DNA from: a virus
Virus genome (UHGV): UHGV-0087155
Strand: one strand, 5' to 3'
DNA length: 35,280 nucleotides
The notes beneath the pieces were generated by a model, which saw only the letters and a list, made by a program, of their open reading frames with translations, was not told where the DNA came from and made no database searches. Below are positions 3,740 through 35,280 of the stretch, in pieces. Each line of letters starts with the position of its first letter. The stretch's first letter is position 1. Both the position numbers and the translations under genes were made by a program.

Positions 3740-4011
3740 AAATGGCAAAAGTAATCTTTGAATTTAACAATACAGAAAATATTGAGTTTCAGGAAAATGG
3801 AGGTTTTGCCGTAAATATGAATGTGCGACTGGAAGAATCCTCACCTGAGGACCAGACCGGGCCACATGACGTAATGGCAGGCATCATCAAGAGCATGGCT
3901 CCTGAAATCATTAAAAAAGCGACCGAGGAGTTGTTGAAATCAGCCAGGGAACTTGGGCTGGAAGCTGAGGGGAAATTATTCAGCTATAACCCGAATACAG
4001 CCAGACATTAA
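3736..4011 (+). CDS. early hypothetical protein (91 aa), acidic
   Basis: ORF in the semi-essential early region; start overlaps the upstream stop; no recognisable motif. Confidence 0.55.
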   Translation: MKMAKVIFEFNNTENIEFQENGGFAVNMNVRLEESSPEDQTGPHDVMAGIIKSMAPEIIKKATEELLKSARELGLEAEGKLFSYNPNTARH

Positions 4012-4031
4012 TTCGCAAAGGAGCGCTGACA

Positions 4032-6624: not shown

Positions 6625-6936
6625 ATGAATAATGGTGTATTTTCAAAATCAGAAGAGCTTGCCGCCCTGCTGATTGCCGGTGGTTTGCCGAAAAAAGAAG
6701 TGCATGACTTTGTGAATTTTGTATATGAGCCGTCTCATGAAAAAGCTATTGATGAAGTCATGGCGTACCGGTTTGGCATTATTGCTGAGTCACTGAGTCC
6801 TCACTGGATTATTGAAAATCTCCGCACTATTGCTGATGGTAACGATAAAGTGGCGGCTGTCGCCGCCCTTGATGTGCTGCAACGTATGAACCGGGAACTA
6901 TTCAATCCCGAGTTTCTTTTTAAGAAACGAGGTTAA
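6625..6936 (+). CDS. early hypothetical protein (103 aa)
   Basis: ATG 6625 after GAAGGTGAG (track ORF starts at GTG 6610); stop TAA at 6934-6936. Confidence 0.55.
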   Translation: MNNGVFSKSEELAALLIAGGLPKKEVHDFVNFVYEPSHEKAIDEVMAYRFGIIAESLSPHWIIENLRTIADGNDKVAAVAALDVLQRMNRELFNPEFLFKKRG

Positions 6937-7314
6937 CCACTGTTTGCCGACGTCTGTTACGAGCGTCATCGGGGCGTCGGCAAGGTCCTGTTTTATGCGC
7001 TCAAGAATGGGTTTTTGATGTAGTGCTTTCGCAAAATCATGACCATCTTGTGTAAGTCTGACACTGGTGCCTGAATATGAATATCCGAGGCTTGTTGGGG
7101 TGAGACCAATGCTTTTTGCGGTGCCTGTTTCCAGATATCTGTTGCTGATAAAACCATTTTCAACCAGCAACAGAAGATGGAAAACCAGCTTCTGATGGCT
7201 GTCGCTGTGCCGCTGAGAACGATCCCAGCCGACATCTTCCAGTCGAATGAATGCGGTGTCGGCCTCCAGAAAAACATCAAATATTCTGGCTATCTCGTCA
7301 TAATCAATTTTCAT
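6898..7314 (-). CDS. hypothetical protein (138 aa) encoded antisense to the early operon
   Basis: ATG at minus 7314 with AAGGA 7 nt upstream; it is the only sizeable ORF in 6937-7344; its 3' end overlaps the converging plus gene by 39 bp. N-terminus (MKIDYDEIARIFDVFLEAD...) is reminiscent of small DUF2513-type phage proteins; this is from memory, not verified. Confidence 0.5.
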   Translation of the reverse strand: MKIDYDEIARIFDVFLEADTAFIRLEDVGWDRSQRHSDSHQKLVFHLLLLVENGFISNRYLETGTAKSIGLTPTSLGYSYSGTSVRLTQDGHDFAKALHQKPILERIKQDLADAPMTLVTDVGKQWLTSFLKKKLGIE

Positions 7315-7344
7315 ATCTCATTCCTTAATATGAGAGGTGAGCAA

Positions 7345-7896
7345 ATGAATCGCACATCGCTTATTAAATTAATCCATGTCGCCCGTCGGGAGCTACAACT
7401 CGACGATGACACTTACCGCGCCTTTCTGATGCAGAAAACGGGCAAAACCAGTTGCCGCGAGCTGACGGTTACGCAACTGGAACAGACGCTCGATGCAATG
7501 AAAGAACGCGGCTTTAAGAAGCTGAATAAACATCCACGTCGCCGCTTTAAGGAACATGTCACGCCCCGCGAGAAGGTGTACAAAGTCTGGCAGCAGATGG
7601 CAGAAGACGGTTTTATTACCGATGGCGGTGATGTGGCGCTGGATAAATATGTTCAGCGCCTGACGGCGAAACGTAATGGCGGACAGGGTGTTTCCACACT
7701 GGCTTGGTGCCACGGAGAATCGTTGCAGGTTGTGCTTGAAACCCTGAAGCAGTGGCACATCCGCTGTATTCGTGAAGCTTTTTCCCGTCACGGGCTTCCG
7801 TTGCCGGTCAGTCCGTCCGGGCGTGAACTGCGCGGCTATGACGCCATGACGGCGGCTTATGTCCATGCCAGAAAGACGCGGAGGATGGCACAATGA
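7345..7896 (+). CDS. gemA: GemA, gene-expression modulator (183 aa)
   Basis: Matches Mu GemA from MNRTSLIKLIHVARRELQLDDDTYRAFL...; ATG 7345 with GAGAGGTGAG RBS. The track ORF extends upstream to 7177 but that extension has no RBS. Confidence 0.85.
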   Translation: MNRTSLIKLIHVARRELQLDDDTYRAFLMQKTGKTSCRELTVTQLEQTLDAMKERGFKKLNKHPRRRFKEHVTPREKVYKVWQQMAEDGFITDGGDVALDKYVQRLTAKRNGGQGVSTLAWCHGESLQVVLETLKQWHIRCIREAFSRHGLPLPVSPSGRELRGYDAMTAAYVHARKTRRMAQ

Positions 7897-24947: not shown

Positions 24948-26435
24948 ATGTTTGAAGATGCTTTAAATGCCGTTAATGCTGTCCGGGATAAAACTGGTGG
25001 AGGCAGGAAAACAACCGGCAAAGGCACGTTCCGTAACGTGCCGTTTCTCGTCATCGAGGAGCAAAAACAGGCTGGCGGACGTCGCCTGGTTAAACGCGAG
25101 TACCCGTTACGTGATACCGGCGGCGTCAATGACCTGGGGAAAAAGCTTCGCTCCCGTACATTCAGCGCCTGCATTCTGAACAGCAACGCAGAAACAGCCA
25201 GAGATGAAGCGGGTGCGCTGATGGATGCTCTTGATGCTCCGGGTAGCGGTGAGCTGGTACATCCTGATTTCGGCACTGTGGACGTCATGGTGGATTCATG
25301 GGAATGCCGCACTAAAGCGGATGAACTGAATTATTACGCATTCACCGTTACCGTTTATCCGTCGTTGCAGGATACTGCCCCGGACTCAGAGACAGACACC
25401 AGTGCAGCCGTACCGGCACAGGCCGTTGCTGTAACCGGTTCTCTGGGAGATACGCTGTCCTCTGTCTGGCAGACCGTAAAAGATGGCACTGCGGCGGCAA
25501 CCGCCGTGATGGAAGCTGTAACCGGTGTCATCGATGATATCAGTGATGCGGTGGACAATCTGGGGGTTACGCAGACTGTCAGCGGTCTGATGGGATCGCT
25601 TTCTGCGATGAAAGGCTCTGTGACCAGCCTGATTAACCAGCCTGCCATGCTGGCCTCCTCGCTGATGGGGGCGCTGTCCGGCGTTTCATCGTTATGCGAT
25701 ACCCGGACAGCATTTTCCACCTGGAACCGTCTGGCGCAGCGATTCGAACGTCGCCATGCCGCCACCACAGGCAGACAGGGGACAATCACAACCTCGTACA
25801 ACAGTCCGGTTGCAGAAAAAAATATTGCCACACTGAACTACGTCATGCTGGCAGCGGCGCAGACATACCGGGCGGAGGCAGCAAGCCAGGCACTGACTGC
25901 GGCACTGGATTTCAGTCGCCGGATGGATAATGCCGCCCGTGCACCTGTACTGGATGCCCCGTCCACCACAACCGGCACAGCCAGCGTGGCCAGCAGCACA
26001 TCTGCTACCGTCACACAGGGACAGTTACAGTTAACTGCCATAACCCCGGACGGCGGCTTTTCACAGGTATCCTTTTCAGACAGTGGTACAGCCACGCCCC
26101 CGGTATTTGAAAGTGTGTCCGATATCGGAAAAACAGCCGCCATGCTGGGGGCTGCACTGGATACCGTCATTCTGACGGCATCTGAGCAGGGCTTTTCGAC
26201 AGACAGCGTTCAGCTTACGCAACTGCGTCTGCTGGTTGTTGCCGACCTGGAAAAACGCGGGCTGCAACTGGCGGGCAGTGAAACGCACCGCCTGCCGGAG
26301 ACGATGCCTGCAATGGTGGCCCTGTACCGTTACACAGGAAACAGCCGGAACTGGCAACGGCTGGCCCGCAGGAACGGTATCAGCAACCCGTTGTTTGTTC
26401 CCGGTGGTGTCAGTATTGAGGTGATTAATGAGTAA
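24948..26435 (+). CDS. N: DNA circularization protein N (495 aa)
   Basis: Size and position match Mu N, the injected protein that non-covalently circularises incoming Mu DNA. Confidence 0.8.
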
Positions 26436-27567
26436 TACCGTCACGCTGCGAACGGATGGCAGGCTTTTTACCGGCTGGACGTCAGTCTCTGTCACCCGCT
26501 CCATTGAATCCGTAGCCGGATATTTTGAGCTGGGGGTGAACGTGCCACCGGGCACGGATTTATCCGGGCTGGCACCGGGGAAGGCGTTCACGCTCGAAAT
26601 CGGGGGGCAGATTGTCTGCACCGGTTATATCGATTCACGGCGACGCCAGATGACCGCTGACAGTATGAAAATCACTGTCGCCGGACGTGACAAAACGGCT
26701 GACCTGATTGACTGTGCTGCCGTTTACAGTGGCGGACAGTGGAAAAACCGCACACTGGAGCAGATTGCGCGTGACCTGTGCACCCCTTATGGCGTTACCG
26801 TTCGCTGGGAGCTTTCCGATAAGGAAAGTTCGGCAGCTTTTCCCGGCTTCACGCTGGACCATTCAGAAACCGTTTATGAGGCGCTGGTGCGTGCCTCCCG
26901 CGCACGCGGTGTACTGATGACCAGCAATGCCGCCGGAGAGCTGGTATTCAGCCGGGCTGCCAGCACAGCCACTGATGAGCTGGTTCTCGGAGAAAATCTG
27001 CTGACACTGGATTTTGAGGAAGACTTCCGCGACCGGTTCAGCGAATACACCGTCAAGGGGTATGCCCGCGCAAACGGTGCTGAGGGTGATGATATTGATG
27101 CGAAAAGTATCGTCTCCCGGAAAGGGACCGCCACTGACAGTGATGTGACCCGTTACAGACCGATGATCATCATTGCCGACAGCAAAATTACGGCGAAGGA
27201 TGCACAGGCCCGCGCCCTGCGTGAGCAACGCCGCAGACTGGCAAAATCCATCACCTTTGAGGCTGAAATTGACGGATGGACTCGCAAGGACGGGCAACTC
27301 TGGATGCCGAACCTGCTGGTCACTATTGATGCCTCGAAATATGCCATCAAAACCACGGAATTACTGGCCAGCAAAGTCACCCTGATACTGAATGACCAGG
27401 ACGGGCTGAAAACCCGCGTCAGCCTTGCACCACGTGAAGGCTTTCTGGTGCCGGTTGAAAGCGACCGTAAAAACAGGAAAGGCGGCGACAGTAACGGCGG
27501 TATTGATGCGCTGGTTGAAGATTATTATCGCAGACACCCGGAGAAAACGCCGCCGTGGAAAGAGTAA
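26428..27567 (+). CDS. P: baseplate hub protein P (379 aa)
   Basis: Size and position match Mu P; GAGGTG RBS at 26418-26423. Confidence 0.85.
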
Positions 27568-28582: not shown

Positions 28583-29665
28583 ATGGCTTATTCACCACCG
28601 ACATTATCATCGCTGATTGCCCGTACAGAACAGAATATTGAACAGCGCCTGCCGGGTAGCTGGCCTCAGGCCCGTGAAAAAACGCTGAGTGCCATTGCTT
28701 ATGCTCAGGCGGGCCTTGCTGCCGGTTGTCACGAGCATATTTCATGGGTTGGACGGCAGATTATCCCGTCGACAGCAGATGAAGATGAGTTGCTGGAGCA
28801 CTGCCGGTTCTGGGGCGTGCGCCGCAAACAGGCGACAGCCGCCAGCGGCCCGCTGACTGTCACCACATCGGCAGCGACCACCATTCCTGCCGGTACACGC
28901 TGGCAGCGTGCTGATGGTGTGGTTTACAGCCTGGCTGATGCCATTGTGATTGACCGTGCAGGAACGACGGAAATTACCGTTACCGCACTGGCTGCCGGTG
29001 AAGCAGGAAATACCGGTGAGAATACCCTTTTAACGTTGATCACCCCGGTTGCCTGTGTTGTTTCCGATGCCATCACTGTAAAAGGGTTTTCCGGTGGGGC
29101 TGATATTGAGAGTGCAGCGGAGCTGCTGTCACGGCTGGAATATCGTGTCCAGTATCCTCCGTTCGGCGGTAATCAGTTTGATTACGTCCGCTGGGCACGT
29201 GAAGTCAGCGGCGTTACCCGTGCCTGGTGTTTTCCGACATGGAAAGGCGGTGGCACAGTCGGGGTGACGTTTGTTATGGATAACCGGAGCAATATTTTTC
29301 CACAACCGGCAGACGTGGAACGCGTGGCAGATTATATCGCCGGTCATACTGACCCGATCACCGGTCTGATTGTCGGACAGCCTGACGGTGTAAATGTCAC
29401 TGTATTTGCGCCAAAGGCAAAGCCGGTAAATCCACGGATTTATATATCACCGAAGACAGCCGAACTGAAACAGGCTATTACCCACGCCATTAATACCATG
29501 TTTTTTAATGAGGTGACGCCGGGCGGCGCACTTGCCCCCTCCCGTATTATCCGTGCGGTGGCAGGTGTTACCGGTCTGGATGATTTTGAAGTGCGTTTCC
29601 CGACAGAGATCCAGCGTTCGGAGAATACGGAACTGTTAACACCGGGGACAATTGAATGGCTGTAA
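28583..29665 (+). CDS. baseplate J-like wedge protein (360 aa)
   Basis: Size and order match Mu gp47. Confidence 0.85.
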   Translation: MAYSPPTLSSLIARTEQNIEQRLPGSWPQAREKTLSAIAYAQAGLAAGCHEHISWVGRQIIPSTADEDELLEHCRFWGVRRKQATAASGPLTVTTSAATTIPAGTRWQRADGVVYSLADAIVIDRAGTTEITVTALAAGEAGNTGENTLLTLITPVACVVSDAITVKGFSGGADIESAAELLSRLEYRVQYPPFGGNQFDYVRWAREVSGVTRAWCFPTWKGGGTVGVTFVMDNRSNIFPQPADVERVADYIAGHTDPITGLIVGQPDGVNVTVFAPKAKPVNPRIYISPKTAELKQAITHAINTMFFNEVTPGGALAPSRIIRAVAGVTGLDDFEVRFPTEIQRSENTELLTPGTIEWL

Positions 29666-30198
29666 CACCCTGGCAGACGGCCTTTCTGCAATTACTGCCG
29701 TCAGGGCTTGCCTGGAATAAAAGCCCCGACAGCAAATTATCTGCGCTGGCGCAGGCCATCAGCGACGTGATTGCCACTGCGGCGGATGATGCGCGGCAAA
29801 TGCTGCGGGAGCGTTTCCCGTCCACATCCCGCTGGTATCTGGGGGAGTGGGAATCATTTCTGGGGTTGCCGGACTGTACCAGCGAAAACGGCACCCTGTC
29901 CGAACGCCAGCGGGCTGCCGCGAATAAAATGCGTATGACCGGCAATCTGAGTCGGCGCTTTTATGAATGGCTGGCTGCGCAGTACGGTTTTACCGTCAGG
30001 CTGACGGATTCCACAGAAGGCCAGTGGGTTACGCAGGTCAATATTTACGGTATTAAAAATTATCGCAACGCAACGGTGCTGGATAATGTTCTGACGCCGT
30101 TACGTGTTTATGAATCGGGTGCGCTGGAATGTTTACTGGAGAAATATAAACCCGCGCATCAGATTTATAAATTTGTTTACCATGACGGAGATAACTAA
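29656..30198 (+). CDS. tail / baseplate protein (180 aa)
   Basis: Precedes the tail fibre gene as in Mu (gp48-like). Confidence 0.8.
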   Translation: MAVTPWQTAFLQLLPSGLAWNKSPDSKLSALAQAISDVIATAADDARQMLRERFPSTSRWYLGEWESFLGLPDCTSENGTLSERQRAAANKMRMTGNLSRRFYEWLAAQYGFTVRLTDSTEGQWVTQVNIYGIKNYRNATVLDNVLTPLRVYESGALECLLEKYKPAHQIYKFVYHDGDN

Positions 30199-31601
30199 TG
30201 TTTTATATTGATAACGACAGCGGCGTAACCGTCATGCCGCCCGTATCCGCCCAGCGTAGTGCTATCGTTCGCTGGTTTTCAGAAGGTGACGGGAATAATG
30301 TTATCACATGGCCCGGCATGGACTGGTTTAATATTGTGCAGGCGGAGTTATTAAACACGCTGGAAGAAGCCGGTATTCAACCGGATAAAACAAAATTAAA
30401 CCAGCTTGCACTGTCCATTAAAGCCATTATGAGCAATAACGCGCTGCTGATAAAAAATAACCTCAGCGAAATTAAAACTGCCGGGGCATCAGCACAGCGT
30501 ACAGCACGTGAAAATCTGGATATCTATGATGCCAGCCTGAACAAAAAAGGACTCGTTCAGCTAACCAGTGCCACTGACAGCCCCAGTGAAACGCTGGCAG
30601 CCACCGCAAAAGCGGTGAAAATTGCGATGGATAATGCCAATGCCCGTCTGGCAAAAGACCGGAACGGAGCAGATATTCCCAATAAGCCGCTGTTTATCCA
30701 AAACCTCGGTTTACAGGAAACGGTAAACAGGGCTGGTAACGCCGTGCAAAAAAATGGCGATACCTTGTCCGGTGGGCTTACTTTTGAAAATGACTCAATC
30801 CTTGCCTGGATTCGAAATACTGACTGGGCGAAGATTGGATTTAAAAATGATGCCGATGGTGACACTGATTCATACATGTGGTTTGAAACAGGCGACAACG
30901 GCAATGAATATTTCAAATGGAGAAGCCGCCAGAGCACCACAACAAAAGACCTGATGACGCTGAAATGGGATGCACTAAATATTCTGGTAAATGCCGTCAT
31001 TAATGGCAGTCTTGGAGTTGGTACGACGAATGCGTTAGGTGGTAGCTCTATTGTTCTTGGTGATAATGACACCGGATTTAAACAGAATGGAGACGGCATT
31101 CTGGATGTTTATGCTAATAGTCAGCGTGTATTCCGCTTTCAGAATGGAGTGGCTATTGCTTTTAAAAATATTCAGGCCGGGGATGGTAAAAAATTCACGC
31201 TATCCAGCTCCAACAACTCCACGAAGAACGTAGGGTTTAATTTATGGGGCGCTTCATCAAGACCAACTGTTGCAGAGCTTGGTGATGATTCAGGCTGGCA
31301 TTTCTATAGTCAGCGAAATACAGATAATTCGGTGATATTTGCTGTAAACGGTCACATACAACCAGGTAACTGGAGTAACTTTGATTCCCGATACGTAAAA
31401 GATGTTCGTCTTGGTTCACAGCAATATTATGGAGTGAACAACTGGCAAACATGGAATTTCCAGTGCCCGTCAGGTCATGTATTGTCTGGTATTAATGTTC
31501 AGGATACAGGGTCCAACTCTGCCGATAATATAGCGGGCGTTTATTACAGACCCGTTCAAAAGTATATAAATGGCACCTGGTATAATGTAGCGAGCGTTTA
31601 A
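30198..31601 (+). CDS. S: tail fibre protein S (467 aa): constant N-terminal part fused to the variable part encoded inside the G segment
   Basis: gixL lies inside this gene at 30694-30719; the residues right after the junction (QETVN) are shared with the start of the oppositely oriented S' ORF. Confidence 0.85.
30694..30719. repeat. gixL, left Gin recombination site
   Basis: TTATCCAAAACCTCGGTTTACAGGAA; its near-perfect inverted copy (two mismatches) is at 33640-33665. Confidence 0.8.
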
Positions 31602-31602
31602 T

Positions 31603-32130
31603 ATGATCCACTTAAAGAACATAAAAATTGGTAATGCTAAAACACCGGAGCAGTATGAGTTAACAAAGAAGCACGGAGTTATCTGGCTTTACTCTGAAGA
31701 CGGAAAAAACTGGTATGAGGAAGTGAAAAACTTTCAGCCAGACACAATAAAGATTGTTTACGATGCAAATAATATTATTGTCGCCATCACCAAAGATGCC
31801 TCCACGCTTAACCCTGAAGGTTATAGCGTCGTTGAGGTTCCTGATATTACAGCCAACCGCCGCGCTGATGATTCAGGAAAGTGGATGTTTAAGGATGGAG
31901 CTGTGGTTAAACGGATTTATACGGCAGACGAGCAACAACAACAGGCCGAATCACAAAAGGCCGTGTTACTTTCCGAAGCAGAAAGCGTTATTCAGCCACT
32001 GGAACGCGCTGTCAGGCTGAATATGGCGACGGATGAGGAACGCGCACGACTGGAGTCATGGGAACGCTACAGTGTTCTGGTCAGCCGTGTGGATACGGCA
32101 AATCCTGAATGGCCACAAAAGCCTGAATAA
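31603..32130 (+). CDS. U: tail fibre assembly protein U (175 aa)
   Basis: Follows S; paralogous to the minus-strand U' (both begin M-HLKNI... and share ...DGKNWYEE... and [12 protein letters not shown]). Confidence 0.8.
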
Positions 32131-32135
32131 AAATT

Positions 32136-32157
32136 AAGGCCCGATAGCGGGCCTTGT
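32136..32157. terminator. bidirectional hairpin between convergent U and U'
   Basis: GGCCCG (32138-32143), loop ATAG, CGGGCC (32148-32153), flanked by A/T on both sides. Confidence 0.5.
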
Positions 32158-32158
32158 T

Positions 32159-32692
32159 TCATTCTGGTTGTTCTGGAAACGTTACTGGCAGGCTGGAGGT
32201 GTCTGTGGATTCGACCTCCTGCGCATAGAGCATCCACTCGGTTAATTTTTGTTTATTCTCGTCGGAAATGATGCCCAGCCGTAGCTGTGAGTCCCATAGC
32301 TGGGTTTTATCCCTGACAAGTTGCAACAGGCTTTGCTTTTCATTCTCTGCCTGCTGCCTCTGTTCCTCTTCGGTATAAGTTCGCTTTATCACTACGCCAT
32401 CTTTGAACATCCATTTACCCGAAATATCAACCCGGCGATTTGCTGTAATATCAGGAACCTCAACGACGCTTGCGCCTTCTGGATTAATTGCTGAAACATC
32501 CTTTTCAATACAAATAATAACGCCGTTGTGGTCATAGACCATTTTCAACGTATCAGTCTGGAAATTCTTTTGTTCCTCATACCAGTTTTTTCCATCCTCT
32601 GTATAAAGCCATTTGATGTTAAATTGTTTCGTTAGCTGGTATTGCTCTTTTGTTTTAGGGTTGCCAGCAGTAATATTTTTTAAGTGCATCAT
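32159..32692 (-). CDS. alternative tail fibre assembly protein U' (177 aa)
   Basis: Minus-strand ORF with GGGGAG RBS; paralog of U. Confidence 0.8.
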   Translation of the reverse strand: MMHLKNITAGNPKTKEQYQLTKQFNIKWLYTEDGKNWYEEQKNFQTDTLKMVYDHNGVIICIEKDVSAINPEGASVVEVPDITANRRVDISGKWMFKDGVVIKRTYTEEEQRQQAENEKQSLLQLVRDKTQLWDSQLRLGIISDENKQKLTEWMLYAQEVESTDTSSLPVTFPEQPE

Positions 32693-32694
32693 AA

Positions 32695-33648
32695 TTAAAT
32701 ACTCCCCGCGTTATACCACGTTCCATTAATGCAATACTGAATTGGCCTTGCCTGAGTTGTATCAATTAATTCATCACGGTTCCCGTTAACTGAACCCGTA
32801 ACGACATAACCTGACCTGTCAGACCAGCCGGGACCATTCCATGTCTGAACAGATGACAGACCGCCAAGGCGAATACCTGTAATAAACCTTGAGTTACATT
32901 CTGCCTGCGTGTATGCACCAACATCTCCCGCTGAGGGTTTGCGGGTCGTGGTGTAAAACTCTGACCAGTCAGCCTCAAATCCATAACCATCACGCGCTGA
33001 ACGATAAAAAATACCGCCGTTCCTGTAATTCACGCGGAACTGTACAGCAGGGCAGCTCCCCGTATTCATATTGAAGTGGAGGATTAATGTCGATGCGCCA
33101 CCAATGTTTGCGTTATAGACCCCGCTATTCCAGTTCCAGCCAACAGCTTTATCATTTCCGACAGTGCTTCCTGTTTGCCCTAAAGCAAATGCAGGTTGTT
33201 GATTTTTCGTGTTGTAGTCTCGTCGCCAGCCAGGAGCATAAGCATCACCATGATTAATATAAGTGAATTGAGCGTTAGTAATTCCGCCACCGCTGGACGT
33301 GCTCGGCGTAGTAACGCGTATGGTCATTGCGCCGCGAGTGCCAATAACTTCCACCACAGCACCTGCAAGACAAATATTTCCGCAACCTGTATCTGTAATG
33401 ACCTTATTATTTGCATAAGCCCATGAGCCTTTGCACATCCAGTAAGGATGGTTAAATGCTCCCTGACTCTCCAGCCACGAAATAAATTGCGCGGTTGTCC
33501 AGACCTGACTATCGCCACCAATATTCAGCCATGCGCTATATGCGCGGCAGGCCCCAATATTTTTGGTGAAGGTATCTTTCCCCGGAATATCTGCGCCGTT
33601 CTGGTTTTTCTGTAATGCGCCAGAAGCCTGATTTACCGTTTCCTGCAA
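32695..33648 (-). CDS. alternative tail fibre variable part S'v (about 317 codons), no own start; expressed only after G inversion fuses it to the S constant part
   Basis: The ORF opens at the gixR boundary with TTG (not a real start) and begins QETVN like the S junction. Confidence 0.8.
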   Translation of the reverse strand: MQETVNQASGALQKNQNGADIPGKDTFTKNIGACRAYSAWLNIGGDSQVWTTAQFISWLESQGAFNHPYWMCKGSWAYANNKVITDTGCGNICLAGAVVEVIGTRGAMTIRVTTPSTSSGGGITNAQFTYINHGDAYAPGWRRDYNTKNQQPAFALGQTGSTVGNDKAVGWNWNSGVYNANIGGASTLILHFNMNTGSCPAVQFRVNYRNGGIFYRSARDGYGFEADWSEFYTTTRKPSAGDVGAYTQAECNSRFITGIRLGGLSSVQTWNGPGWSDRSGYVVTGSVNGNRDELIDTTQARPIQYCINGTWYNAGSI

Positions 33649-33665
33649 ACCGAGGTTTTAGATAA
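33640..33665. repeat. gixR, right Gin recombination site
   Basis: TTCCTGCAAACCGAGGTTTTAGATAA, inverted copy of gixL. Confidence 0.8.
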
Positions 33666-33719
33666 TGGTTGTTTCCGGCCTGCATGGCATGATTTGCGCT
33701 TTTAAACGGGAGATCCAGA

Positions 33720-34337
33720 GTGCTGATTGGCTATGTAAGGGTATCAACAAATGACCAGAATACAGACCTGCAACGAAACGCTCTTGTTTGTGCAGGATGT
33801 GAACAAATATTTGAAGATAAATTAAGCGGAACAAGGACAGACAGACCTGGATTAAAACGCGCGTTAAAGCGCCTTCAAAAAGGTGACACACTGGTTGTCT
33901 GGAAACTGGATCGCCTCGGGCGAAGCATGAAACATCTGATTTCCCTCGTCGGGGAACTACGGGAGCGAGGGATTAATTTTCGCAGTCTTACCGACAGCAT
34001 AGACACATCTTCTCCAATGGGGCGTTTTTTCTTCCACGTTATGGGTGCCCTGGCTGAAATGGAACGAGAACTAATCATCGAGCGAACGATGGCTGGACTT
34101 GCTGCCGCCAGAAATAAAGGCCGTATTGGTGGGCGACCACCTAAACTAACCAAAGCGGAATGGGAGCAGGCCGGGCGTTTATTAGCACAAGGAATCCCCC
34201 GCAAGCAGGTTGCATTGATCTATGATGTGGCTCTGTCAACTCTGTATAAAAAACACCCCGCGAAACGAACGCATATAGAAAACGACGATCGAATCAATCA
34301 AATCGATCGGCAATACAGATCGATTATGCCCCAATAA
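33720..34337 (+). CDS. gin: Gin serine invertase (205-aa ORF, GTG start)
   Basis: Matches Mu Gin (MLIGYVRVSTNDQNTDLQRNALVCAGCEQIFEDKLSG...), catalytic Ser in the VRVST motif; this ORF runs ~12 codons longer than I remember for Mu Gin. Confidence 0.95.
   Translation: MLIGYVRVSTNDQNTDLQRNALVCAGCEQIFEDKLSGTRTDRPGLKRALKRLQKGDTLVVWKLDRLGRSMKHLISLVGELRERGINFRSLTDSIDTSSPMGRFFFHVMGALAEMERELIIERTMAGLAAARNKGRIGGRPPKLTKAEWEQAGRLLAQGIPRKQVALIYDVALSTLYKKHPAKRTHIENDDRINQIDRQYRSIMPQ
34287..34321. promoter_or_regulatory. cluster of three GATC (Dam) sites upstream of the mom promoter
   Basis: GATC at 34287-34290, 34305-34308, 34318-34321; in Mu three Dam sites upstream of Pmom govern OxyR-mediated repression. 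A -10-like TAAGAT is at 34362-34367. Confidence 0.6.
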
Positions 34338-34395
34338 CCACACTCAACCCACGATGTTTTTTAAGATAGTGGCGAATTGATGCAAAGGAGGTGAG

Positions 34396-34584
34396 ATGAA
34401 ATCAATTCGCTGTAAAAACTGCAACAAACTGTTATTTAAGGCGGATTCCTTTGATCACATTGAAATCAGGTGTCCGCGTTGCAAACGTCACATCATAATG
34501 CTGAATGCCTGCGAGCATCCCACGGAGAAACATTGTGGGAAAAGAGAAAAAATCACGCATTCTGACGAAACCGTGCGTTATTGA
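34396..34584 (+). CDS. com: Com, zinc-finger translational activator of mom (62 aa)
   Basis: Matches Mu Com ([36 protein letters not shown]...); RBS AAAGGAGGTGAG. Confidence 0.9.
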
Positions 34585-35230
34585 GTATGAAGGCCAGATT
34601 GTTGGCTATGGTTCAAAGGAACTGCGCGTTGAAACCATATCCTGTTGGCTGGCCCGCACAATTATTCAGACAAAGCACTATTCCCGCCGTTTTGTGAATA
34701 ACTCTTACCTTCATCTGGGGGTATTCAGCGGACGCGATCTGGTTGGCGTTCTCCAGTGGGGATATGCCCTTAACCCCAACTCAGGTCGTCGTGTCGTGCT
34801 TGAAACGGATAACCGGGGCTATATGGAGTTGAACCGCATGTGGCTACACGACGACATGCCCCGCAACTCTGAATCACGGGCCATCAGCTACGCGCTGAAA
34901 GTTATCAGATTACTGTATCCGTCAGTGGAGTGGGTTCAGTCCTTTGCTGACGAACGCTGCGGACGCGCAGGCGTTGTGTATCAGGCGTCGAATTTTGATT
35001 TTATTGGCAGCCATGAAAGCACGTTCTACGAGCTGGATGGTGAGTGGTATCACGAGATAACGATGAACGCGATTAAGCGAGGTGGACAACGAGGCGTGTA
35101 TTTACGGGCTAATAAAGAGCGTGCCGTGGTGCACAAATTTAATCAGTATCGCTACATCAGATTCCTGAACAAGCGAGCAAGGAAGCGGCTAAATACCAAG
35201 CTATTCAGGGTTCAGCCATACCCTAAGTGA
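34535..35230 (+). CDS. mom: Mom DNA-modification protein (231 aa from GTG 34535; the ORF is open from ATG 34505)
   Basis: Matches Mu Mom; overlaps the com 3' end in another frame; the GTG start gives the 231-aa length I recall, the exact start is uncertain. Confidence 0.85.
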
Positions 35231-35250
35231 TCCCCATGGAATGAATAAAA

Positions 35251-35275
35251 AGCAGTAATTAATACTGCTGTTTCA
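35251..35275 (+). terminator. hairpin after mom
   Basis: AGCAGTA (35251-35257), ATTAA, TACTGCT (35263-35269), then GTTTCATTT. Confidence 0.5.
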
Positions 35276-35280
35276 TTTGA

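Follow-up and report, generated by a model that had tools for sequence, protein, structure and literature searches.

The window, by which we mean the whole 35,280-nucleotide stretch of the virus genome UHGV-0087155 that was analysed, contains a tail-fibre locus in which two 26-bp gix sites enclose two sets of fibre and chaperone genes (Table 1). Sc, which encodes the constant N-terminus of the fibre, leads into the segment from outside. Within it, a variable fibre part and its chaperone (Sv and U) read rightward, an alternative set (S'v and U') reads leftward, and gin, the gene for a serine DNA invertase, is adjacent to the segment. This arrangement had been proposed in a first-pass annotation made from the DNA letters, and every one of its elements was recovered at the positions given there. 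Sc is joined to Sv in the window, which is therefore recorded, as that annotation had read it, in the G(+) orientation in which S and U are expressed.

Table 1 Features of the fibre locus, in window positions
Feature	Position	Strand	Description
Sc	30198-30705	+	Constant N-terminal fibre part, not included in the invertible segment; covers residues 1-169 and the beginning of the gix-encoded FIQNLGL
S	30198-31601	+	Fibre protein, 467 aa, expressed as recorded; Pfam Phage_fiber_2 and Gp34_trimer
gixL	30694-30719	+	Reads TTATCCAAAACCTCGGTTTACAGGAA; central TC at 30706-30707; identical to both Mu gix sites
Sv (part of S)	30706-31601	+	Variable part joined to Sc in the recorded state
U	31603-32130	+	Tail-fibre assembly chaperone for S, 175 aa; Pfam Caudo_TAP, E = 4.5e-37
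Bidirectional terminator	32135-32156	.	G+C-rich hairpin with T runs on both strands, between convergent U and U'
U'	32159-32692	-	Chaperone for S', 177 aa, silent as recorded; Pfam Caudo_TAP, E = 5.8e-37
S'v	32695-33653	-	Alternative C-terminal fibre part, promoterless and lacking a start codon as recorded; listed as an open reading frame at 32695-33648
gixR	33640-33665	-	Reverse complement reads TTATCTAAAACCTCGGTTTGCAGGAA; central GA at 33652-33653
gin	33720-34337	+	Serine DNA invertase, 205 aa, GTG start; Pfam Resolvase E = 7.6e-50, HTH_7 E = 2.6e-17
Putative enhancer (sis)	33720-33842	+	5' part of gin, Fis-bound in Mu; base-for-base identical to Mu

Genes and sites of the segment

Residues 1-171, encoded by Sc, match Mu S at 100% identity, and in the Mu record the corresponding stretch is annotated as the N-terminus common to S and S'. 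The complete S protein matches the structure of Mu S (PDB 5YVQ) with E = 2.7e-188, and the exact protein is present on 13 contigs of a public collection. U is identical to Mu U at 159 of 175 positions and U' to Mu U' at 173 of 177, and the two chaperones are 56% identical to each other. In the gap between these convergent genes, a terminator scan detected the hairpin on both strands; the annotation of phage D108 places rho-independent terminators, also on both strands, at the corresponding position. Solved structures cover all parts of the system, namely Mu S (5YVQ, 9KI1), Mu S-S' (8JU3) and Gin (3UJ3, 4M6F).

The alternative fibre part, S'v, differs at two positions from the Mu S-S' chain of PDB 8JU3 (residues 172-488; 315/317 identical). 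It begins (L)QETVN, and a TAA located three codons upstream, at 33658-33660 in the outer half of gixR, closes its frame. On the minus strand of the segment, a consensus scan revealed nothing promoter-like ahead of S'v; overall, promoter-like sites were fewer than in shuffles. The TTG at 33648 was considered as a genuine start of S'v and rejected because the codon is Leu172 inside gix and the fused 488-residue protein is the form present in databases and in PDB 8JU3. Since this TTG is the gix-encoded Leu172 codon, a TAA stands upstream and no promoter-like site was found, S'v has no start of its own, in agreement with the first-pass annotation, which had also noted its initial QETVN. As in a G segment, the S'v-U' set has its own chaperone, is convergent with Sv-U and lacks a promoter and a start. 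One earlier statement had to be revised: Sv and S'v had been called unrelated in sequence, but BLASTP aligned the final ~75 residues of the two with 35% identity (E = 2e-8), which indicates that they have a homologous C-terminal module.

The N-terminus of Gin reads MLIGYVRVSTNDQ, with Ser9 present at the position of the linking serine (PMC3575834). Compared with the 193 residues of Mu Gin, the 205-residue protein shows a single substitution and ends in a 12-residue tail, which is located after the HTH_7 domain (residues 138-181), and its residues 1-193 match the Gin structures 3UJ3 and 4M6F with E = 4.5e-125. By these comparisons gin is intact. The exact 205-residue protein was found on 431 contigs. 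Mu and the window do not differ at any base of 33709-33842, a stretch that comprises the first 123 nt of gin and the 11 nt before its GTG. The Mu enhancer lies inside the invertase gene, according to the work of Kahmann et al. 1985 as it is listed in PMC3798978; with identity to Mu as the sole guide, the putative sis would be placed in the 5' part of gin.

The two gix sites are inverted relative to each other and match at 24 of 26 positions, so the number of mismatches given in the first-pass annotation was correct; they fall at positions 6 and 20. Both sites retain the TC/GA dinucleotide at the centre as well as the inner 12 bp (AAACCTCGGTTT), and the two changes in gixR are outside these 12 bp, 7 bp from the gix centre. 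The inner 12 bp have been reported to be important for an evolved Gin catalytic domain, Ginbeta (PMC5175349). The classical 34-bp inverted repeat (30694-30727 and 33632-33665) has the 26-bp gix as its outer portion, and the inverted repeats comprise ~38 nearly identical bases, with weaker complementarity on to 61 nt. A search of the whole window for gix-like sites with up to three mismatches returned none beyond gixL and gixR, and the chance expectation for the pair was 0 in 100 shuffles. At this threshold there was thus no sign of a multi-segment, shufflon-like system. An Rfam scan of the whole window at the gathering threshold gave 0 matches.

Both orientations in public sequences

The segment was inverted in silico at the central TC of gix and then compared with public contigs. 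The flipped version was 100.000% identical to contigs L012 and L013 over 6,081 nt and to contig L020 over 4,191 nt, and the unflipped window was 100% identical to contig L006. L006, which is G(+), and L012, which is G(-), also have in common 5,003 nt upstream and 2,584 nt downstream, the phage-host junction included; the two are one prophage at one insertion site, differing only by the flip. L012 and L013, both flipped, are inserted at different places in the chromosome. Among 5,426 complete E. coli genomes, a G(+)-type junction was present in 23 and a G(-)-type junction in 12, and in two finished E. coli W assemblies, which carry the Mu allele, inversion was the sole difference over 8,001 nt.

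The reading frame is open in both states. As recorded, Sc-Sv encodes 467 residues; after the flip, Sc-S'v encodes 488 residues and U' follows 3 nt later. The predicted 488-residue fusion is present verbatim in public data, on 11 contigs in one search and on 13 in another. These data support the earlier proposal that inversion exchanges the fibre tip together with its chaperone. Two circumstances that had been named as speaking against a working switch, a single orientation accompanied by a defective gin and repeats incompetent for recombination, are not what we found: both orientations are public, gin is intact, and the public flips have their junctions exactly at the gix core.

Of the two mismatches between the gix sites, the T at position 6, which is also found in gixR of D108, stays with the gin flank, and the G at position 20 moves with S'v: it is also at the right site in L006, L007 and L009 and at the left site in L012, L013 and L020. 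This sorting fits what strand exchange at the gix centre predicts, and the crossover is confined to 13 bp around that centre, which contain the Gin cleavage site. It is hardly credible that the opposite orientations represent assembly errors or RecA-dependent recombination between short inverted repeats. Short-read assemblers can mis-join at repeats, and those present here have ~38 nearly identical bases and weaker complementarity to 61 nt. However, the k-mers given in the contig records (k115, k127) exceed the repeat in length, flips also occur in complete genomes, the two finished E. coli W assemblies included, and the crossover is restricted to the 13 bp that hold the Gin cleavage site. Repeats of 34-38 bp are, in addition, a poor substrate for RecA.

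The same pairs of sequences bear on whether this particular copy is frozen in G(+), its gixR mismatches making poor substrates and the cassette surviving as a relic in the lineage. The existence of two mismatches between the sites could suggest this, as could the speculation in the SfMu paper that a single change beside the gix centre might block inversion (PMC4406740). We nevertheless consider it very unlikely, as the exact site variants of the window are flipped at two chromosomal insertion sites (L012 and L013), they have been redistributed between left and right as a central crossover predicts, and both lie outside the inner 12 bp described as important (PMC5175349). From the natural flipped and unflipped pairs it is clear that the sites tolerate variants 7 bp from the gix centre.

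Flips in other assemblies could also stem from a resident invertase acting in trans, for instance e14 Pin or the Cin encoded by a P1-like plasmid, in which case the phage's own gin would not be the flipper. Gin, Cin, Pin and Hin cross-complement, and related fibre-inversion cassettes accompanied by a recombinase family protein occur in about one third of the complete E. coli genomes (1,888/5,426). Moreover, Gin is 205 residues long here, against 193 in Mu and 197 in D108, and the 12-residue tail may have weakened it. Yet this tail comes after HTH_7, and the remainder of the protein is one residue off Mu Gin; the presence of the 205-residue form on 431 contigs makes it a common, maintained allele, and elements that carry it occur in both states. 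We therefore regard inversion in trans as improbable and the action of the phage's own Gin as the better account of the flips.

The G segment and its G(+) tip

The surroundings of the cassette are Mu-like as well. The window aligns with Mu (from position 1481 to 36652) at 95-98% identity over most of the window's length, and the gaps in the alignment are in the early region (1-432, 3775-4017 and 6634-7345) and at the Sv tip. The gene order of the locus is that annotated for S, U, U', S', gin, com and mom in Mu and D108, with 95-97% identity, and Pfam detects the com and mom families downstream of gin. Relatives terminate in the Mu right end, at differing host sites. By these comparisons the window is a Mu/D108-like (Muvirus) prophage. 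As with a Mu-type G segment, the element that carries the cassette is a transposable Mu-like phage, with the baseplate genes on one side of the cassette and gin-com-mom on the other. We estimate a probability of roughly 95% that the 2.95-kb cassette is the G segment of a Mu-like prophage and switches the tail-fibre tip along with the matching chaperone. The switch is complete, and it is evidently active, since identical DNA occurs flipped in other public assemblies.

The mechanism would be that of Mu. Late transcription would read through Sc into the segment and, in the recorded G(+) state, would continue through Sv and U and end at the central bidirectional terminator. Each gix would be bound by a Gin dimer, and the dimers would synapse with the aid of host Fis on the enhancer in the 5' part of gin. 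Gin would then cut the central TC, turn half of the complex by 180 degrees and religate, leaving the segment flipped, with Sc fused in frame to S'v and followed by U'. A lysogen population would thus yield two kinds of particle that differ in receptor specificity. By analogy with Mu we infer that inversion depends on Fis and the enhancer, how the strands are exchanged chemically and which hosts the phage can infect; the G(-) hosts of Mu are listed in PMC4406740. Invertases of the Gin, Hin, Cin and Pin group depend on negative supercoiling as well as on host Fis. The two receptor specificities would likewise follow from the example of Mu. The expectation is well founded for S', because S'v is 315/317 identical to Mu and is joined to a Mu-identical Sc, and less certain for Sv, because the tip is of the P2 gpH type and not of the Mu S type.

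We found that the S protein is a mosaic. Residues 172-406 resemble P2 gpH, with 93 of 93 residues identical at 172-264 and 127 of 142 at 265-406. They are followed by a private patch at residues 407-447, which matches neither P2 H (6/41) nor Mu S (10/41), and then by 20 conserved residues (448-467) at the end of the protein, beside the chaperone gene. We would give even odds to the proposal that this lineage carries a recombinant G(+) arm, consisting of a P2 gpH-type tip and the ~40-residue patch, within an otherwise Mu-type switch. If this is true, the phage would alternate a P2-like or new, non-Mu specificity in G(+) with the classical Mu specificity in G(-), and the cassette would exemplify how unrelated phages exchange tip modules yet keep the C-terminal end. 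The G(+) host range probably differs from that of Mu, given a tip of the P2 gpH type with a private patch.

This is an already-known, textbook G-segment host-range system, and the Mu G segment is the founding example of phage host-range switching by DNA inversion; for that reason the locus offers nothing new on mechanism, and it is to annotators that it is of practical use. The silent S'v reading frame should not be annotated as a separate gene or as a pseudogene, and the orientation recorded in an assembly is a snapshot only. For the G(+) fibre of this lineage, the K-12 specificity of Mu should not be assumed, because the tip is of the P2 gpH type.

Comparison with known systems

Mu (NC_000929, Mup49-Mup53) has the same gene order, strands and position before com and mom. 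Its gixL is identical, its Sc is 100% identical, and residues 1-193 of Gin differ at one position. Differences from Mu are seen in the G(+) tip, where Sv is 33% identical to Mu S from residue 265 on (S is 467 residues long here and 504 in Mu), and at the right site, where gixR has two changes relative to the perfect repeat of Mu. Mu also has CAA in place of the TAA that closes the S'v frame just outside the segment. Of the phage collection, D108 (NC_013594) matches best overall at the nucleotide level, with 96.8% across 87% of the query. It has in common the T at position 6 of gixR and the sequence between gixR and gin, whereas its S tip differs over the corresponding ~540 nt, its gixL has a change beside the centre (AAAACGTC) and its Gin has 197 residues.

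P2 offers a parallel for the G(+) tip. Its tail-fibre protein H (NP_046775) is accompanied by the chaperone G, to which U is identical at 156 of 175 positions. In contrast to the cassette described here, the H locus of P2 has no invertible segment or invertase, and Sc has no relation to the N-terminal part of H. The C segment of P1 and P7 with Cin and the P-segment/Pin-type cassettes of E. coli prophages share the design of a constant fibre gene that runs into the segment, two tip-plus-chaperone sets that converge, and a serine invertase next to the segment, with 90-94% nucleotide similarity over half of the query; they differ in the constant fibre part, the phage backbone and the invertase allele, and their sites are cix or pix instead of gix. 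The Hin/hix flagellar switch of Salmonella uses a recombinase of the same subfamily as Gin, and Hin, like Gin, needs two 26-bp sites and a Fis-bound enhancer inside the invertase gene (PMC3798978). Unlike the Gin system, however, Hin inverts a promoter and not coding ends, and its gene is located within the inverted segment.

Layout of the G segment and its recombination sites

The complete invertible host-range switch described by the first-pass annotation proved correct, complete and well described: the window carries a complete textbook Mu G-segment/Gin system, and the ORFs found match the proposed layout. Aligned with Mu, the window covers Mu 1481 to 36652 at 95-98% identity, except for a few early-region replacements and the Sv tip, and thus represents most of a Mu-like prophage, the finding being its G segment. 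About 1 kb of the phage precedes the window, which stops 65 nt short of the right end. BLASTN detected no similarity to Mu at 1-432, 3775-4017 and 6634-7345 in the early region, stretches that look like replaced early or semi-essential genes.

Features of the G segment and its surroundings (Sc, constant N-terminal fibre part; Sv and S'v, variable tips; U and U', their chaperones)
Feature	Coordinates	Strand	Length	Assignment
S	30198-31601	+	467 aa	tail fibre
Sv	30711-31601	+		variable tip of S
U	31603-32130	+	175 aa	Caudo_TAP
U'	32159-32692	-	177 aa	Caudo_TAP
S'v	32695-33648	-	317 aa	tail fibre, C-terminal part
gin	33720-34337	+	205 aa	Resolvase + HTH_7
Gin C-terminal tail	34299-34337	+		3' end of gin
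com	34396-34584	+	62 aa	Zn_ribbon_Com
mom	34505-35230	+	241 aa	Mom
gixL	30694-30719		26 bp	left Gin site
gixR	33640-33665		26 bp	right Gin site
Classical inverted repeat	30694-30727 / 33632-33665		34 bp	gix sites are its outer part
Second inverted repeat	30654-30679 / 33584-33609		26 nt	88% complementary
Hairpin	32135-32156	both		terminator score, G+C-rich
TAA	33658-33660	-		outer half of gixR
U/U' repeats	31684-31949 / 32346-32611		158 nt and 80 nt	imperfect inverted, 73-74% complementary

Searching both strands of the whole 35-kb window for gix-like sites with at most three mismatches returned only gixL and gixR, and 100 dinucleotide-preserving shuffles of the window returned none. gixL reads TTATCCAAAACCTCGGTTTACAGGAA and the reverse complement of gixR reads TTATCTAAAACCTCGGTTTGCAGGAA; as previously annotated, they differ by two mismatches, one at position 6 and the other at position 20. 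Neither site has lost the central TC/GA or any of the inner 12 bp. PMC5175349 gives CTGTAAACCGAGGTTTTGGA as the native gix core and reports that the inner 12 bp are important to Ginbeta, an evolved version of the Gin catalytic domain; both gixR changes fall outside these 12 bp. In the D108 reference record, gixL (L002, 1595-1620) has AAAACGTC in place of AAAACCTC, a change that adjoins the central dinucleotide, converts Leu to Val in S (FIQNVGL) and is absent from the window. Weaker complementarity extends beyond the 34-bp repeat, to 61 nt, because Sv and S'v start with identical residues. The second inverted repeat, separated from gixL by 40 nt on the outer side and from gixR by 31 nt on the inner side, encodes a K-x-x-NGADIP motif in Sc and S'v, so that the S' fibre has a unit of about 27 residues twice, in tandem across the junction.

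The TAA in gixR closes the S'v frame three codons before the junction and results from the same C-to-T change that gives one gix mismatch. This T is common to D108 and most of the relatives fetched, whereas Mu has CAA and a frame that is open outside the segment; for this reason Mup52, as called by a gene finder, runs past the segment boundary. The hairpin, identified by a terminator scan, coincides with D108's two annotated terminators; as it scores on both strands, neither fibre transcript should enter the silent set. A promoter scan found no promoter-like site upstream of S'v. U and U' are convergent homologues, which accounts for the long imperfect inverted repeats in this region.

Inversion in public sequences

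An in-silico flip of the window, with breakpoints at the central dinucleotides of gixL and gixR, placed Sc in frame with S'v to give a 488-aa protein, with U' three bases on. This open Sc-S'v frame followed by U', together with publicly available flipped twins, bears out the claim that inversion swaps the fibre tip and its chaperone. The public protein collection contains exactly this 488-aa sequence, from 11 E. coli contigs, and it is traceable to 13 contigs. Among public DNA records, the flipped window matched L012 and L013 (6081 nt, 29200-35280) and L020 (4191 nt) at 100.000% identity with no gap, and the unflipped window matched L006 at 100% across the same 6081 nt. L006 and L012, from different samples, likewise agree at every base across 5003 nt upstream and 2584 nt downstream, which includes a common phage-end/host junction. 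They are one prophage at one chromosomal site, and the sole difference is the orientation of the segment. Since L013 is inserted at another site, the flipped state extends beyond a single lysogen lineage. A frozen switch is contradicted by these twins. In L006, L009 and L011-L017, prophages that carry this fibre gene, the Mu right-end sequence abuts a host site that nearly always differs between assemblies (only L006 and L012 have one in common), in line with integration by transposition.

Two finished assemblies of E. coli W (L022 and L023; NC_017635.1 and NC_017664.1, 292000-300000) differ across 8001 nt only by the inversion, with 0 mismatches after an in-silico flip. Among 5426 complete E. 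coli genomes, 23 carry the G(+)-type Sc-Sv junction and 12 the G(-)-type Sc-S'v junction. In every flipped copy of the window's segment, the position-6 T remains beside gin and the position-20 G travels with S'v to the left site, a sorting that confines the crossover to 13 bp holding the known site of Gin cleavage. The opposite orientations are unlikely to stem from assembly error or RecA-mediated exchange, given that finished genomes exist in both, that the repeat is short and that the crossover is confined. For the silent variable part in E. coli W, the two RefSeq annotations disagree: one assembly lists a pseudogene, the other a separate tail fibre protein.

Gin residues 1-193 are those of Mu Gin except for A184T. 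The protein is 12 residues longer than Mu's because the Mu stop (codon 194) and the D108 stop (codon 198) are both CAA here; its tail, QIDRQYRSIMPQ, lies past the HTH_7 domain, and the exact 205-aa Gin occurs on 431 public contigs. Ser9, the residue that covalently joins Gin to DNA (PMC3575834), is present, and 3UJ3 and 4M6F, solved structures of Gin, match the protein at E = 4.5e-125. The first 123 nt of gin and the preceding 11 nt are identical to Mu, whose enhancer lies inside gin (Kahmann et al. 1985, listed in PMC3798978); from this identity we infer an intact putative enhancer within the window's gin. Some other resident invertase may have produced the flips in trans, though this seems unlikely; the window's own gin has no sign of a defect.

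A further group of prophages has the identical 467-aa S (L003, 13523-14457; L004, L005 and L007) or the same S' (L018). These five have a more divergent 190-aa invertase (about 94% nucleotide identity), followed by a ydcA-like gene replacing com-mom, and Mu right-end sequence was not found in the fetched flank. The C-terminus of the YdcA-like protein closely resembles that of the window's baseplate-hub ORF (26428-27567).

Fibre tips, host range and relation to known phages

Sv and S'v had been described as unrelated, which did not hold: over the C-terminal ~75 residues they show 35% identity (E = 2e-8), in a stretch ending in INGTWYN(V/A)(A/G)S. U and U' are 56% identical. The two arms are diverged copies of a single tip-plus-chaperone module.

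The nucleotide match to Mu and D108 breaks from ~31000 to ~31540, and Sv is a mosaic. Compared with Mu S and P2 gpH, respectively, identities are 171/171 and 55/171 for S residues 1-171, 87/93 and 93/93 (100%) for 172-264, 47/142 (33%) and 127/142 (89%) for 265-406, 10/41 and 6/41 for 407-447, which match neither, and 17/20 and 15/20 for 448-467. The last 20 residues are conserved across Mu, D108 and P2; the ~40-residue patch at 407-447 looks like the hypervariable part and is probably receptor-contacting. For the last 203 residues, the closest phage records are Yersinia myophages (79%) and P2-like phages (73%), and homology of the distal domain to its Mu S counterpart (PDB 5YVQ) persists (E = 1.7e-18). 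The G(+) specificity, with Sc-Sv joined, thus probably differs from Mu's. S'v differs from the S-S' chain of PDB 8JU3 at 2/317 residues; the fibre made in G(-) is essentially that of Mu. Phage bearing it should then have the Mu G(-) hosts, namely E. coli C, Citrobacter, Shigella sonnei, Enterobacter, Serratia and Erwinia (summarised in PMC4406740).

The region 30100-34400 is 96.8% identical to D108 and 95.1% to Mu, with 87% of the query length covered; these matches fall on the annotated S, U, U', S' and gin. The Mu and D108 reference records have the window's gene order, strands and spacing, and both annotate the G-segment boundaries and inverted repeats. The switch is already known, and its exact sequence is already in public assemblies; the sole mildly new point is the G(+) tip, which is of the P2 gpH type and carries a private distal patch.
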